Positions 7,988 through 19,394 of a stretch of 64,000 nt of DNA are shown one piece after another (positions within the stretch are counted from its first letter, which is position 1; each line of letters starts with the position of its first letter). The notes under the pieces are model-generated. The model did no database searches and was not told where the DNA came from. It was given only the letters and a program-made list of their open reading frames with translations. Origin of the DNA: Candidatus Eiseniibacteriota bacterium (lineage in GTDB: Bacteria; Eisenbacteria; RBG-16-71-46; SZUA-252). A program made the position numbers and the translations under genes. The stretch is from positions 799-64,798 of the forward strand of contig CAVUEC010000012.1 in NCBI GenBank assembly GCA_963740415.1. Direction: 5' to 3'.

Positions 7988-10900
7988 ATGACCCCGGCTC
8001 CCGCTCAGATCTCCCACTACAAGATCGAATCCACCCTGGGCCAGGGCGGCATGGGCGTGGTGTATCTCGCGGAGGACCTGATCCTTCGCCGCCGGGTCGC
8101 CCTCAAGTTCCTCAATCCCGAGCTGGCCCGTGACGCCGACGCGAGAAAGCGGTTCCTCAACGAGGGTCGCGCCGGCGCGACCCTGGGCCACCCGAACGCC
8201 GCGGTCCTTTACGAGGTGGGAACCGATGGTGACGACCTCTTCCTCGCCATGGAATTCGTCCCAGGGGTCACCCTCTACGAACTTCTTTCGGGCGGTCCGC
8301 TTCCTTGGATCGAGGTGCTCGACGCGGCGCTCGAAATCCTCGCCGCGCTGCGCGAGGCCCACGCAAAGGGAATTGTCCACCGGGACATCAAGAGCCAGAA
8401 CGTCCGTCGCACTCCGGACGGTCGGATCAAGGTGCTCGACTTCGGCCTCGCCAAGATCCTCGGCGGAAGCACGATCACGCGCGAAGGCACAATTGTCGGC
8501 ACCGTCGCCTACATGTCGCCGCAACAGGTCGTGGGGGAGGACGTGGACGGCCGGAGCGATCTCTACTCGCTGGGCGTGGTCATGTACGAGCTTTTGACCG
8601 CGCGACTGCCGTTCACCGGAGATCAGCAAGTCGCCGTGGCCCACGCCATCCTCCACGAGGATCCGATCACGGTCCGCGAGCTATCCCCGGAGGTGCCCGC
8701 CGAGCTGGAGCACATCGTGTTCAAAGCGATGATGAAGAACGTCGCGTCGCGGTATCAGAGCGCCGAGGAGATGACCGAGGACCTGGCGCGGTTCCGCGAG
8801 CACGACCGGCGCCGCCGGGCCGGGATCCACGAAGAGCTGGATCTGATCGCGACGCAGGACGTGTTCGCGGTGCGGCGCGAGCGGTTCCTGGCGCCGATGG
8901 TGGGCCGCGACGCGGTCCTGGCCAAGATCCGCGGCTACCTCCGCGAGGCTCGCTCCGGGGAGGGGATGGCGATCTGCATCGCGGGCGAGGCCGGCGTGGG
9001 GAAGACGAGACTTCTTCAAGAATTGCATCAGACCTGGCGGCGCGAAGGCGCGCGGGTGATCGTTTCGGCATGTCTCTTCGGCGGCACGGCCGGCTCGTAC
9101 TCCCCGTTTGCCGAGGCGTTCCGGCACTACTTCTCGCTGCGCGGAGTCACGACGGCCGCGGCCCTCCAGACGTTCCTCTTCGATCGCGCGCCGCGCCTGG
9201 GCGGATCGCTGCCGGTCCTGAACCGCTTCCTTCGATTTACGTTCGCCTCCAACGGGCCTACGAGCGAGGAAGAACTCTGGGAGGTCCTCGATCAGCTCGT
9301 CGCGTTCATCGCGGACGAGCGGCCGTTGGTGCTGGTCCTCGAGGATCTGCAATGGGCGGACGAGGCGTCCCTTCGACTCTTCCACTATCTGGCGGGCCGG
9401 GTCAGCCGGCGGCGCCTGCTCCTCGTGGGGACCTACCGCCAGGAGGAAGTCGTCACCGAGCCAGGCGCGCCGGCCGCACCCGTTGCCCGGAGTCCTTCAG
9501 CTCCTGAATCGCGAGGATCGGTTCGACCGGATGGAGTTGCCGCGGCTTCGGCGTGAGGACGTGCACGAGATCCTGAGCCGGCTTTATCCGAAACACGCGT
9601 GGGGCGAGGATTTCCCCACCCTCCTCTTCCGGGAGTCGGAGGGGAACCCCTTCTTCATGGTCGAGATCTTGAAGCTCCTCGCCACCGAGCGGATTCTCGA
9701 GGAGCGAGATGGGATCTGGGCGCTGAAGACCACCGTCGACAAGATCTCGATCCCCGACAAGGTGTTCGACGTCGTGATGCGGCGCCTGGGGCGGCTGGGA
9801 CCCCGCGAGCGCGAAATTCTCGAGCTCGGCGCGGTCGAGGGCGACATCTTCCACTCCGGCACCATCCTGCGCGGGTTGCGGATCGAGCGGATGGCGCTCT
9901 TGAAGACGCTCCAGTTCCTGGAGCAAATCCATCATTTGATCCACGCGGCGGGACCCTCGTACCACTTCGATCATTCCAAGATCCGGGAGATCCTCTACGA
10001 CAGCATTCCTCCCGAGTTGAGGATCGAATACCACACGGTGGTTGGGCAATTTCTGCACGAAAGTTTTGGCGACCGCGAGGAATACGCGGGGATCATCGCC
10101 CACAACCTGCTGGCGGCGGGACTTCGGGAGGAGGCCATTCCCTATCTCACCCGCGCCGCCGCGTCGGCCGGGCGGCTGTTCGCGCACAGCGACGCGATCC
10201 ATTACCTGGAGCAGGCGGAACGAATGCTCCACGAGCTCTACCCGCAGCGGACCCCCGTGGAGCAGGTAAGGAGGCTCTGCGAGATTCGCGAGCGGCGCGG
10301 CGAGGAGGAGGTGGCCAGCGGCCATTACCGAGAGGCGCTCGAGAGCTTCGAAATGGCGCTCCAGCTGGACCGGGCCGCGGGCGAAGCGCGGCGCGAGGCG
10401 GAGCTGACCCGCGCCGTCGGCCGCGTCCAGTACCTGCTCGGCCGATCGGCGGAATCCAAGATGTCCTATGACAAGGCCATCGCCCACTTCACCCAGGTTG
10501 AGGCGCGCGAGCGCGCGCTCGGCGACTCCGAGGCGCTGGCCGTCGCGTGCCGTGAGCTCGGTAAGCTCTATTTCTTCCGCGGCGAGCTCGAGCCATCGCG
10601 GCACTTCATCGACGGTGCCATCCAGATCGCCGACCGGGTGGGCGCGATCCGCCTCAAAGCCGCGGCGCTCAACAATCTCGCCGGCATCCACTACGAGCGC
10701 GGCGAATTGGAGGAGGCGCTGGCCTGTCACCGCGCCGCGCTGGCCATCCGCCAGGAGATCCGTGAGCCCCAGGATCTCGCGCAGACGTTCAAGAACCTCG
10801 GCATCACCCATTGGCGTCTCGGCGAGCCGACGGAGGCGACGTCGTATCTTGAAGAGGCGCTCGGCCTCTTCCGAAAGACGGGAGACCGGCGCGGCGAGGC

Positions 10901-11924
10901 CGTCACGCTGCGCCAGCTGGGGAACGTCCACCACGCGCGGGGCGACAACACCGGCGCCCAACGCCATTGGGAGGCGTCGCTCTCTCTGTGCCGCGAGCTG
11001 GGCAACAACGAGGACCTGTGCAGTTGCCTCAATAACCTGGGCTCGCTCCACTTCGAGCGGGGCCACTACGCGAGCGCCCATCGCCACTACCAGGACGCCC
11101 TCGAGGTATCGGCATCGATGGGCTCGATGCCGCGCCTGACGGTGCTGCATGTGAACCTCGCCGAGCTGCACCTGAGCCTGGACCAGCTGAACCGCGCCGA
11201 GGACGATCTGGTGCGCGCGCGGGAGCTGGCCGAGGCGCTCGAGGCGACCGGGAACCTGTCACTCATCCACGCCGTCTACGCCGAGCTGCAGGTGGAGCGC
11301 GGCGATTTGGCGGCGGCTCGGGCGGAGGCCGATTTGGCGTCCAACCTCGCGGAGCCGACCGGGCACGCGGAACATCTCGTGAGGGCGCTCCTCGCGTGCG
11401 CGCAGGTGGACTACGCCTCCGAGGACTTCCGGGCGGCGCGGCAATCCGCGAAACGGGCCGGCGACGTCGCGCGGTGGTCGCGGATGCTCCGGTTCGAGCT
11501 CTTGACTGCGTTCGAAGCCGCGCGCGCGGCGTGGAAAGAAGGCGAGATCGAGGTCGCCGCGCACGAGCTTCGCCAGATTTCGCCCCGGGCGGAGGAAGGC
11601 GGATTCCGCCCGCTCGCCGCCAAGATCCGCGGCCTCCTCGGCGAGATTCTCTGGGGGGCGGGCGACCTGGACGGGGCGGCCCTGGAATTCTCCCGCGCCG
11701 CGGACCAAATGAAGGAGATCATCGCGACCTTGAACGAAGAAGACCGGCGCTCGTTCGTCCATCATCCCGAGTGGAAAGCTGCGATCGGGAACCTTCTCGA
11801 TACGCTGATGCGCCTCGGCCGGAGAGAAGAAGCGCTGGCCTACCTGGTGCCCCTCGGCGTGGGGACCTGCGACATCGATTCCGCGCCGGCGCGCGCCGTG
11901 TCGCCGGCGGGGGTGTCGTCGTGA
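7988..11924 (+). CDS. Ser/Thr protein kinase - AAA/STAND ATPase - TPR protein (about 1310 aa; frameshift near 9470)
   Basis: GQGGMGVVY, ALKFL, HRDIKSQN, DFG; Walker A GEAGVGKT, Walker B LVLEDLQWAD; SEGNPFF and TPRs in the 9483-11924 frame; the two ORFs join as one domain series. Confidence 0.85.
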
Positions 11925-17453: not shown

Positions 17454-17513
17454 CCGCTCCGAGGGCGCCTCCAGTCGGCGCCCGGTCGCCCGGGCTTTCG
17501 CTCCCGGCCTAGC

Positions 17514-19394
17514 CTAGCCCGCCCATTTCCAGCCCGGATCGAGATAGCTCTTCAGCGCGCTGTCCAGGTAGTCCTGATAGGCGGCCGGAAGCTTTGGCAT
17601 CCGGCGCTCGCAGATCTTTCGCGCGTGGGCGAGCCCGCCGTCCGCCTGGGCCGCCGACGCCACCAGCCTGAGGACAGCCCGAAGGCGCCGTTCCACCACA
17701 GCGGTCAGGTAGGGCCCTCCCGCGAGCGACCGAACGGCCCGGTCCAGATCGAACCCGGCCTCGCAGAATTCCCGCAGGCATTCTCCCTGGAAGTAATAAG
17801 TGAGCGTGGTCCGGTCGGCCACCGGCGCGTCCTGCGTGCCTTCTCTGGCTTGCGCCACCTTCAGGGTCCGGCCCGCGGAGGCCACATTGAACCCGTGGCG
17901 GCGGAGGTGGGTCAGCACCCAGTTGCCCATGCTCCGGTCGCCGCGCTTGGGTGTGTCTGCGGTTGAGACGAGCGTGGCCGGGCGGCGAAGGATTCGTCCC
18001 AGGTCGGGTCCCACGCCCCCTCCGGTGCCTCCAACCGCGAGGGCCGTGATCAAGTTCTGTAGCTCGCGGATATTACCTGGGTAATCGTGCTCGAGAAGGC
18101 GGGACTCGAGCGCCGCATCGATCTTGAGGACCGGCGTCCCCATCTCCTCAGCCGCAGCCCTGGCGAAAGAACGCGCGAGAAGCGGGATGTCGCCCTTCCG
18201 CTCGCGGAGCGGCGGGATGTGGAGGGTGAGGACGCTCACCCGGTAGTAGAGGTCGCTCCGGAATCGGCCGGCCTCAACTTCCTTCCAGAGATCCCGGTTC
18301 GTCGCCGCCACCATCCGCACGTCGACGTGGACCGTTTCCTCGCCGCCCACGCGCCGGAACACCCCTTCCTGAAGGACGCGCAGGAGGCGCGTCTGGGCGG
18401 GAAGGGGAAGCTCCCCCAGCTCGTCGAGGAAGATCGTTCCCTGGTGGGCCATTTCGAACATCCCGCGCCGATCCTTCACCGCGCCGGTGAACGCGCCGCG
18501 CTCGTGCCCGAAGAGCTCGCTTTCGATCAGATCCTTGGGGATGGACCCGCAGTCCACGACCTCAAACGGTCCCTTTGACCGCGGCGAGATCTCGTGGACC
18601 GCGCGGGCCAAAAGCTCCTTGCCGCTCCCGGTCTCCCCCTGGATCAGCACGGGGCACCGCGTGGGGGCTACGCTGGCGGCCTCTTCCAGCAGGCGGAGCA
18701 TGGCCGGGCTATCGCCGAGGATCTTGTCGGTGAAGGGATGCTTGGCGCGGAGATCGCGGAGCCGCCGCGACACCTGAGACGGCGCGCGAGCCTCCGGGTT
18801 GGGAACGGTCGGGTAGCGAGGCTCGGCGGGCACATCGGTGCCGGCGCCCGACTCGATCGCCTGCGCGGCCATGTCCGCGGCGCGCACGAGAAGCTCGAGA
18901 GTCTCCGCCGCGTACGGCTCGCCGCCGATCCTGGGTCCCACCGCGGCCACCCCGACGAGATCGGAGCGAACCACGAGAGGAAGGAGGAACGCGGCCTCCA
19001 AGCTCTCCGCCCAACGGCGAAGAGGTCCGCTCTCCAGGGGTCCGAATCCGTTCACAGACTCGGTCAAGACGGGAAGGACGCCGTCTCCTTCGGGATCGGT
19101 GAGGAGTCGATGCGTCGCGGTTGAGACGGCTAGCTGCTCGCTCTTGCCGGGCGGGGTGAGACCGAAGGCGACCGAGATTTGCAGTCGCCGTCGCGCCGTG
19201 GCATAGACGTAGCCCACCGCGTGCGAAGCGCCGGTGGAACCCAGTATGGAATGGAGCAGGCGGCCCAAGATTTCGGCCGGCCGGCTGGCGCCGAGGAGAG
19301 AGCGCGCGATTTCGAGCAAAGCGTAGGCGTCGGAAAAGCTGCGGGCCAGATCGGGGTCGGCTGCGTCGATTGCTAGAGGTTCTGGGGCCCGCAT
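17514..19394 (-). CDS. GAF-domain sigma54-dependent transcriptional activator (bEBP)
   Basis: [42 protein letters not shown]-terminal GAF; start uncertain (ORF extends to 19490). Confidence 0.9.

Follow-up and report, generated by a model that had tools for sequence, protein, structure and literature searches.

In the daptide pathway, as described in excerpts of the preprint (bioRxiv 10.1101/2023.03.08.531785), the leader peptidase MpaP/DapP consists of a recognition element for peptides that are made on ribosomes and modified after translation (RiPPs), the RRE, fused to an intramembrane site-2-type metalloprotease to which leader removal is assigned, and the precursor carries the leader motif ELExMEAP. 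Here we analyzed a related locus at positions 7988-19394 of a 64,000-nucleotide (nt) stretch of DNA, referred to as the window, which is part of contig C12 (CAVUEC010000012.1) of a Candidatus Eiseniibacteriota genome assembly (GCA_963740415.1). Four plus-strand genes (genes 1-4) are followed there by an open reading frame (ORF) of 42 amino acids (aa) behind a -24/-12 promoter (gene 5) and by a convergent gene for a GAFTGA-containing activator (gene 6). Gene 3 encodes an RRE-like domain, an M50 protease and a HlyD-type adaptor in one polypeptide, and gene 5 encodes a Lys-rich peptide. Lys-rich ORFs are paired with such a protease in distant soil bacteria as well, which suggests a hitherto undescribed route by which small peptides are cut and exported.

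Relationship to described systems

As in MpaP/DapP, judged from those excerpts, the product of gene 3 begins with an RRE that is followed by an HExxH intramembrane protease, and a small precursor gene adjoins it. Precursors of paralogous cassettes found in loci L022 and L026 (loci, genomes and sequencing runs are given by our own numbers) also have a LEQRIAP leader resembling ELExMEAP. Unlike a daptide locus, however, the window locus has no MpaB/C/D/M-type enzymes, and gene 3 scored below the equivalog cut-off; its protease carries a periplasmic adaptor in the same chain and has a GAF-HlyD protein as partner, with no ATP-binding cassette (ABC) exporter. The gene 5 peptide differs from the daptide precursor, as far as the excerpts characterize the latter, in being Lys-rich and hydrophilic, in ending in ND instead of a C-terminal Thr, and in having no ELExMEAP motif. 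By these features the locus is not a daptide system.

Peptidase-containing ABC transporters (PCATs) work with HlyD-type accessory proteins, as in the colicin V system CvaAB-TolC, ComAB and RaxAB. The window locus resembles them in having a precursor without a Sec signal and in the coupling, proposed below, of leader removal to export via an adaptor and an outer-membrane channel. It differs in that the protease is M50 instead of C39, the leader is not of the double-glycine type and three different adaptors are encoded; neither a C39 nor an ABC ATPase domain was found in the locus genes and their conserved neighbours, which places the locus outside the PCATs. The epipeptide protease YydH/LiaK (NF058609) is likewise an M50-type protease and matures a small ribosomal peptide, whereas the present locus has no radical-SAM epimerase, and that family, as modelled (246-position profile), includes neither an RRE nor an adaptor fusion. 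In its periplasmic part, gene 3 has the fold of MacA, MexA, AcrA and EmrA (E 1e-13 to 1e-11), and genes 2 and 4 match RND_mfp/HlyD models; unlike in tripartite efflux systems, there is no cognate inner-membrane pump gene, and two of the three adaptors are fused to RRE-M50 and GAF-GAF modules. The cassette is thus kin of the daptide RRE-protease with PCAT-like logic and a member of neither group. Nor did we find a conserved tailoring enzyme, as RiPPs in the strict sense would have; the candidates differ by clade (a kinase here; SET proteins in L028, L029, L033 and L040).

No published description of the fusion, its GAF-HlyD partner or the Lys-rich precursors was found in a full-text literature search whose scope excluded subscription journals and supplements, including the RRE lists of the daptide paper, which may name this family; an 'M50' match in one review was a residue number. 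The locus and its relatives supply a candidate substrate, a predicted inducible promoter and a cultivable carrier (a Granulicella strain, L038). They make testable the role of adaptor proteins without a pump and the reach of RRE-guided leader removal beyond the known RiPP classes.

Gene 3 encodes an RRE-like domain fused to an M50 protease and a periplasmic adaptor

The RRE-protease part of gene 3 (aa 18-398) matched the NCBIfam model daptide_HExxH (NF041824) with an E value of 1e-55 and 189.5 bits, and aa 184-321 matched the YydH/LiaK model at 4e-12 (46 bits against a cut-off of 225). Pfam Peptidase_M50 (PF02163) is listed in precomputed annotations of many close homologues. Residues H201, E202, H205, N296, N298, P299, D304 and G305 did not vary among 15 aligned homologues with identities as low as 25%, and the two motifs lie in the model helices H183-211 and around H276-313, as expected for M50 proteases. 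The M50 assignment made in the preliminary description of this locus, which had been drawn from the letters alone, is borne out by these catalytic motifs.

In the full-length model of gene 3 (predicted local distance difference test, pLDDT, 79), an N-terminal domain is followed by a helical membrane core, one transmembrane (TM) helix and an adaptor with a two-helix hairpin. Structure comparison of the C-terminal adaptor with MacA, MexA and AcrA gave E values of 1e-13 to 1e-10, and the HlyD family models HlyD_3 and HlyD_D23 matched at 44 and 38.8 bits, respectively. The two pieces into which gene 2 is divided in the window matched TIGR01730 at 69 bits (3e-19) and 99.4 bits (1.9e-28; cut-off 94.9), and gene 4 combined GAF domains with HlyD (HlyD_D23, 54.7 bits). 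Together with the lipoyl/barrel-sandwich, hairpin and beta-barrel fold, these family matches identify genes 2, 3 and 4 as genes for periplasmic adaptors. All features listed in the preliminary description were present at the positions given there, and its domain calls for the kinase-STAND-TPR, M50-HlyD and GAF-HlyD proteins agreed with the domain models; its heading had left out the lipoprotein-type RND_mfp adaptor of gene 2.

A separate model of aa 1-110, built from a 21-sequence alignment (pLDDT 81), showed the order b1-b2-b3-a1-a2-a3, and its best Foldseek matches in the PDB were TbiB1, PqqD and the lasso-peptide B1 protein, with modest E values of 3e-3 to 6e-3 and a probability of 1.00. 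The N-terminal 90 or so aa of gene 3 are thus predicted to form an RRE-like winged helix (b3-a3) whose best structural matches are RiPP leader-binding domains, in agreement with the PqqD-like RRE proposed earlier. This assignment follows the fold, a three-stranded sheet and then three helices, and the similarity to solved RREs, and not the Pfam PqqD model (PF05402), which gave no match to the window domain at E <= 10; the homologues of gene 3 scored 13-20 bits against its cut-off of 23.4, with only P0111 above it (26.6). The net charge of the RRE core was negative (-1 to -11) in 18 of 18 cassettes with Lys-rich peptides, and was -2, -1 and +3 in three paralogues paired with an acidic LEQRIAP-type leader; as a consistency check, this relation between RRE and peptide charge is suggestive only. 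Co-folding of the RRE (aa 1-100) with the peptide gave a score of 0.00 which, without control runs, was given no weight on binding in either direction.

A library of 1.84 billion cluster representatives contained 10,634 relatives of the RRE-M50 module of gene 3 at E <= 1e-3, of which 1,238 reached E <= 1e-30. Among the best 150, 117 were at least 600 aa long, which is the length of the adaptor fusion. Sequence similarity places this module in a very large, widespread family.

Gene 5 is a conserved gene with a leader/core pattern

Gene 5 was present and intact in all five cassette-carrying genomes of the genus, with one in-frame codon indel among them; all five shared, without variation, the GGAGG core of the Shine-Dalgarno sequence, the ATG start and the -24/-12 bases GGCACG-N-CGGTTGC. 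The peptide had no Pfam or NCBIfam family and no PDB sequence match, and a protein-atlas look-up gave chance-level rows only (<= 0.84). Among 5.8 billion proteins searched, 36 relatives were found, all unnamed or 'hypothetical'. In 25 aligned sequences, residues 1-31 were near-invariant and the last 10-12 variable. Across 20 distinct coding sequences, the leader (32 columns) had a mean of 1.66 residue types against 3.0 codon types, several columns using four codons for a single residue, whereas the core or tail (10 columns) had a mean of 6.1 residue types. The small number of residue types relative to codon types in the leader indicates that selection acts on the protein. Two or three tandem copies of gene 5 were found in five loci (L023, L110, L112, L114 and L118); the three copies in L118 have identical residues 1-32 and tails that all differ. 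Judged from this pattern of substitution, gene 5 is a real protein-coding gene with leader/core conservation.

The separate promoter proposed for the 42-aa ORF was also recovered, with its spacing kept: of 18 copies of the peptide gene in 14 loci, 17 had the pattern GGCA-N7-TGC at a distance of 76-84 nt before the ATG. In the window, the exact pattern was found once against 0.23 expected, and 21 of 100 shuffles gave at least one, so the single site is not significant alone. The GG and GC elements, spaced as in TGGCAC-N5-TTGC, their kept position among relatives and the presence of rpoN in the source genome (296 bits) identify a sigma-54-type promoter; no sigma-70-like promoter was found in the scanned region. 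In 16 of 21 copies, the ATG is preceded at a distance of 177-191 nt by a palindrome, GGAA(A/T)TTCC, which is a candidate activator-binding site. A second palindrome was found in full (11 nt) at -124 to -126 in 7 of the 21 copies, and its inner 9 nt in two more.

Downstream of gene 5, a hairpin of -35 kcal/mol (z -3.3; 0 of 200 shuffles as good) retains its stem in the orthologues despite changed letters. A simple terminator scan missed this G+C-rich hairpin, and separate folding showed it. Rfam gave no match at E <= 1 on 16900-17600; the conserved stretch between the genes therefore belongs to no known RNA family.

Gene 6, described earlier as a convergent GAFTGA activator, matched Sigma54_activat (PF00158) at 229 bits with GAFTGA in its translation, as in enhancer-binding proteins. 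It was convergent and adjacent in each orthologous locus that extends to it, and an activator gene was adjacent in 19 of 19 compared loci. In PADLOC, the activator matched RtcR/PspF-type AAA models, and genes 3, 4 and 5 had no match.

The peptide gene and the cassette are linked across genomes

For a reverse test, metagenome contigs were scanned with the peptide alone, which yielded 12 loci. All 12 had the peptide gene flanked by cassette genes: GAF-HlyD lay upstream in all nine loci that extend upstream, and the convergent activator downstream in seven; in the remaining loci a paralogous M50-HlyD cassette lay downstream (e.g. L107).

A scan with gene 3 in one genome per species confirmed 465 relatives among 600 matching stretches, and the best 80 were kept. 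GAF-HlyD upstream together with a convergent activator downstream was found at 20 of these 80 M50-HlyD loci, 19 of Acidobacteriota type and one of Eisenbacteria. When the neighbours in 19 loci plus the window were clustered all against all, only two families were common to all 19: the adaptor-type proteins, with 60 members or three for each of the 20 loci, and the activator (19 of 19). A gene 4 orthologue was present in every compared locus.

The gap between M50-HlyD and the activator held Lys-rich small ORFs in 18 of 19 loci examined, with a 191-aa repeat protein in the 19th; in each of four loci, three short Lys-rich ORFs stood in tandem. An N-terminal M-x-I-x-KKSLI was common to 15 peptides from 13 loci, in which it is followed by repeats, for example (LAKGT)n, (NLATK)n or (GRA)n. 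When 469 small ORFs near M50-HlyD genes were clustered without bias, this KKSLI family formed the largest cluster (11 loci). The Acidobacteriota cassettes have a gene order unlike that of the window, with the peptide on the other strand, indicating that the association of peptide and cassette survives rearrangement. Conserved small ORFs, whose absence from homologous loci had been named as a ground for rejecting the earlier proposal, thus occur both within the genus and across phyla.

Of ten genomes of the genus (completeness 60-97%), five contained a full-length orthologue of gene 3, and homologues at 66% identity carry the NCBI label Candidatus Eisenbacteria. No orthologue was found in 15 genomes from the other genera of the family, where G010 has a distant paralogue (34% identity). 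This patchy distribution is typical of accessory loci.

Some relatives carry further genes. In four Acidobacteriota cassettes, SET-domain genes (Pfam SET, 1e-19 to 6e-17) lie between the tandem Lys-rich ORFs and the activator (Table 1), which hints that SET enzymes methylate lysines of the neighbouring peptides. Nine of 19 Acidobacteriota/Eisenbacteria loci have a STAS protein of about 112 aa (anti-sigma-antagonist type, 6e-15) at the edge of the cassette, which precedes GAF-HlyD or adjoins the activator (e.g. L096:4098-4439, minus strand; L050:12373-12711, plus strand). We read the kinase-STAND-TPR, STAS and SET genes as clade-specific regulators or tailoring enzymes.

M50-HlyD genes of Zixibacteria and Planctomycetota are without GAF-HlyD and activator and are accompanied by a DUF3467 protein (a cluster of six loci; among others L037:1033-1362, 3e-28; L052:4425-4754; L099:10295-10627; L103:10527-10886), and in three of these loci also by a small zinc-ribbon membrane protein. 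The M50-HlyD subfamilies seem to have different small partners.

A paralogous cassette directly follows the Lys-rich peptide gene in L022 (1939-7292, minus strand) and L026 (1250-6118, minus strand), and also in L107, L109 and L115. It consists of a precursor-like ORF, an RRE-M50-HlyD protein of 811-834 aa, a 371-aa protein without a family and a FemAB-type aminoacyl-transferase. The RRE-M50-HlyD protein of L022 matched NF041824 at 1.8e-67. The paralogous precursor has the leader MRHL-x-LE-x-E-x-LEQRIAP followed by Gly/Ser/Lys/His-rich repeats of 63 or 179 aa. No second RRE-M50-HlyD gene was found in the window's own genome.

Proposed processing and export of the peptide

From the gene structure, domain identities, catalytic motifs, small-ORF conservation, promoter and cross-phylum linkage established here, and from the predicted RRE fold, we infer leader binding, a cleavage site, export, an energy source and a role for the product. 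The reading that we favour, with somewhat better than even chances, is that the locus is a self-contained cassette for maturing and exporting a peptide, in which an RRE-guided intramembrane leader peptidase fused to adaptors processes and exports a sigma-54-induced precursor without a linked ABC ATPase. The GAF-type enhancer-binding protein of gene 6 would activate the sigma-54 promoter of gene 5, yielding a hydrophilic precursor without a Sec signal, with a Lys/Arg-rich leader of 31-33 aa and a short variable C-terminal part. The acidic PqqD-like RRE of gene 3 would capture the leader at the cytoplasmic face, and the M50 intramembrane zinc protease in the same polypeptide would cleave the precursor. 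The released part would exit via three adaptor domains (the C-termini of genes 3 and 4 and the lipoprotein of gene 2) and an unlinked TolC-type channel; the source genome has three TolC-type genes elsewhere. The cytoplasmic GAF domains of gene 4 may gate or sense, and the kinase-STAND-TPR protein would be a clade-specific regulator, not a tailoring enzyme. As a guess, the product in the window's clade might be a secreted, strain-variable signal peptide of 9-12 residues. If the peptides are indeed processed and exported in this manner, their variable tails and repeats would represent a new pool of natural peptides from hard-to-culture soil phyla.

In a bolder form of this proposal, which we consider unlikely, the three adaptors and the M50 core would make up a new type of envelope-spanning peptide secretion machine that works without an ABC, RND or MFS pump and has the protease as its gate. 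The window's clade would make strain-specific pheromones of 9-12 residues, read by the STAND-TPR kinase with feedback on the sigma-54 activator, and Acidobacteriota would export long cationic repeat peptides, some of them probably lysine-methylated by SET enzymes. ATPase-free export, if true, would be a new route among bacterial secretion systems.

Several points weigh against processing and export by the cassette. No ABC, RND or MFS gene or other transporter or ATPase was a conserved neighbour in the 19 loci plus the window, which agrees with the exporter without an ABC ATPase of the preliminary description; to our knowledge, all adaptors of this fold that have been characterised cooperate with a pump in the inner membrane, and without a linked pump, export needs either an unlinked one or an unprecedented mechanism. 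The substrates of site-2-type proteases known to us, daptides included, are hydrophobic, and the gene 5 peptide is very hydrophilic and cationic. Gene 3 fell short of the family thresholds, with 189.5 bits against 300 for NF041824 and 25.6 bits against a gathering score of 27.2 for PF02163. Neither GAF-HlyD nor the activator stood in the cassette arrangement beside M50-HlyD in 58 of the 80 loci, so the protease-adaptor fusion is not tied to Lys-rich peptides generally. Of the 20 Acidobacteriota-type gaps, only 10 contained a strict sigma-54 pattern on the matching strand.

Further points of this kind concern the peptide itself. A conserved N-terminus with a variable tail would also fit a small protein with a disordered end. 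In an hhalign comparison of the window-type peptide family with the Acidobacteriota N-termini (probability 2.2%, P 0.021, 17 columns), the two families are not shown to be homologous by sequence, so the cross-phylum argument rests on position and composition. The compared relatives, the Acidobacteriota loci included, are kin of each other, and the counts overstate their independence. Contigs from RNA libraries, one of them covering 17013-17252, were short, came from relatives at 90-95% identity, may be DNA carry-over and do not prove that the locus is transcribed; runs X19 and X20, with identical figures, are probably one data set deposited twice.

Alternative explanations

The absence of a linked transporter would suit regulated-proteolysis signalling, in which the adaptor-like proteins would form an envelope sensor, the M50 protease would destroy or activate the peptide inside the cell, and the peptide would act on the activator or another cytoplasmic target with no secretion. 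M50 enzymes are best known from signalling cascades (RseP and SpoIVFB), and sensor modules are many: GAF domains on genes 4 and 6, the STAS protein in 9 of the 19 loci and the kinase-STAND-TPR protein here. Three periplasmic adaptor domains of the MacA/MexA fold would nevertheless be costly for a sensor, and tandem copies that keep the leader identical and diversify the tail typify exported peptides and not regulators. The RRE fold, to judge from the best structural matches, has so far been linked to peptide maturation. We rate this alternative as having a small chance of being correct, and processing for export as the better account.

The second alternative concerns gene 1. The preliminary description had listed its kinase as a possible modifier, and this part of it was not upheld; as a whole, the earlier interpretation is partly supported. 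Domain models matched Pkinase (7.8e-42), AAA_16 (1.2e-26) and TPR_12 (8.6e-41). Both pieces of gene 1 matched TIGR03903, the family of the thiazole/oxazole-modified microcin (TOMM) kinase-cyclase fusion, at 1.7e-57 and 2.8e-23, below the cut-off of 705 bits. Gene 1 has the same domain order as this fusion and STAND-type signalling kinases; unlike TIGR03903 proteins, it has no cyclase domain and is coupled to an adaptor/protease operon.

As a tailoring enzyme, the kinase would phosphorylate Ser/Thr in the conserved S-P-T-T-P stretch of the gene 5 peptide before cleavage, and the product would be a modified RiPP. Partial matches of the kinase domain to LanL/LanKC-type synthetases (2.7e-28 and 1.8e-18) fit this idea, far below the cut-offs as they are, whereas the best whole-family matches of gene 1 are regulators or fusion kinases, every one below its cut-off. 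T26-P27 is invariant in 25 of 25 peptides, but the Thr/Ser stretch sits in the conserved leader-like part, outside the variable one. Gene 1 shows translational coupling to genes 2-4 through a GTGA overlap and is present in 5 of 5 window-type loci that extend far enough upstream (L021, L022, L023, L109 and L114), but no kinase-STAND-TPR gene was found in the 19 Acidobacteriota-type cassettes compared, which do without it. Moreover, the locus has no lyase or cyclase domain, and kinase, AAA_16 and MalT-like TPR together form a signalling architecture, as in PknK and AfsR-like proteins. Modification by the kinase is quite improbable in our view, and gene 1 is more likely a clade-specific regulator than a tailoring enzyme. 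In PADLOC, the kinase matched PD-T4-6 models at 1e-91 through the generic kinase domain only; a role in defence was considered and set aside because of the translational coupling to genes 2-4.

The weakest alternative, for which we see very little chance, makes the small ORF an ordinary cytoplasmic basic protein that binds nucleoid, ribosome or RNA and only happens to lie near the activator, and gives the adaptor and protease genes a different, unlinked cargo; a composition like that of histone-like tails, one chance-level atlas row with HC2 in 20% of members and the want of a known family or solved relative speak for it, whereas the peptide occurs solely beside cassette genes (12/12 loci), a housekeeping protein would not be expected to be as patchy as the cassette, which just 5 of the 10 genomes in the genus contain, other Lys-rich ORFs fill the same gap in another phylum, and the tandem gene copies have variable tails.

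Gene structure and frame breaks

The features of the locus are collected in Table 1. The four-nt stop/start overlaps proposed for genes 1-4 were read in the letters: GTGA at 11921-11924, where the stop of the ORF 9483..11924 overlaps the GTG start of gene 2; GTGA at 13034-13037, where the stop of the ORF 12471..13037 overlaps the GTG start of gene 3; and ATGA at 15085-15088 at the junction of genes 3 and 4.

The description of four intact genes held biologically, but not for the letters of the window. As lettered, gene 1 consists of two ORFs (7988..9556 and 9483..11924) with a frame shift near 9470, and gene 2 of an ORF from 11921 and another at 12471..13037, with a frame shift near 12447. Independently built contigs from public runs had one base fewer at 9469 (runs X1 and X4) and at 12445 (run X1) and were otherwise identical to the window over 527 bases; run X1 may be the window's own sample, and is then independent of the assembly and not of the organism. 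Genes 1 and 2 each form one continuous frame in four orthologous loci of the genus, and gene 1 is unbroken in L021, L022 and L023. Because the public-run contigs are without the extra base, the orthologues have a single frame and removal of one base mends the frame, the breaks are 1-nt insertions private to the assembly, and both genes were treated as intact. A 1230-aa ORF at 11396..15088, the first 546 aa of which overlap genes 1 and 2 out of frame, was dismissed as a read-through artefact of high G+C content.

The source assembly comprises 3.0 Mb in 14 contigs and is 91.8% complete; the G+C content of the window is about 67%. The rpoN gene of the source genome (G000:C3:113987-115376, L119) is present as two overlapping pieces in different frames, which fits an assembly with occasional single-base insertions. 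In G008, a one-contig relative, the homologues of the TolB-like and MFS flanking genes are split (L021:689-2953 and L021:15366-16606). Single-base errors are probably common in these assemblies, and apparent pseudogenes need checking.

Table 1. Coordinates of the features of the locus and of SET genes in related cassettes (positions in the window unless a locus number is given)
Feature	Position	Strand	Basis
Gene 1: Hanks-type Ser/Thr kinase (aa 11-259), AAA_16/STAND NTPase (aa 304-480), TPR array; cytoplasmic	7988..11924	+	domain models
Gene 2: periplasmic adaptor, RND_mfp type, lipobox-like LFAGC at N-terminus	11921..13037	+	TIGR01730; lipobox by eye
Gene 3: RRE-like domain aa 1-90 (nt 13034-13303), M50 core aa ~125-340, long helix, TM helix aa 422-437, periplasmic adaptor aa 439-684	13034..15088	+	
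Gene 3, HExxH zinc motif (H201, E202, H205)	13634..13648	+	invariant in 15/15 aligned homologues
Gene 3, second M50 motif N296-x-N298-P299-x4-D304-G305-Y306	13919..13951	+	invariant columns
Gene 4: two cytoplasmic GAF domains aa 42-360, hydrophobic segment, periplasmic adaptor aa 417-656	15085..17055	+	
Palindrome GGAAATTCC, candidate activator-binding site ~100 nt upstream of the -24 element	17070..17078		putative function
Palindrome TTGCGGCGCAA, second candidate upstream site	17135..17145		
Sigma-54-type -24/-12 promoter GGCACGGCGGTTGC	17181..17194	+	
Ribosome-binding site GAGGAGGG before gene 5	17247-17254	+	
Gene 5: 42-aa Lys/Arg-rich precursor-like peptide MAAKKISAKSKKTAAKKGARKVSPTTPRGMARRQFLTPPSND; leader-like aa 1-~33, variable last ~10 aa	17259..17387	+	
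Terminator-like hairpin, G+C-rich, after gene 5	17411..17446	+	folding
Gene 6: sigma-54 enhancer-binding protein; GAF-like sensor (weak, 3e-4), AAA+ with GAFTGA aa 225-391, C-terminal region	17514..19394	-	
SET gene	L028:11403-11909	-	
SET gene	L029:11629-12090	-	
SET gene	L033:7536-7991	-	
SET gene	L040:12902-13396	-	

Neighbouring genes

Directly upstream of the activator and on the same strand, an MFS_3 transporter of the 'transmembrane secretion effector' type is encoded at 19563-20798 (minus strand). MFS_3 likewise adjoins the activator in L021 and L024, and none was found past it in L023; the Granulicella locus (L038) has an MFS_3 gene on the upstream side, before GAF-HlyD. No MFS family was common to the 19 compared loci, and the transporter was therefore not taken to belong to the cassette.

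The gene on the other side (6034-7989, minus strand) runs divergently from gene 1. Its 651-aa product combines beta-propeller repeats of the PD40/TolB type and a FlgD-Ig domain with a C-terminal sorting domain for type IX secretion (TIGR04183, 26.5 bits; cut-off 23). The surroundings of this gene are kept in L021-L023 and L109, probably as plain synteny.

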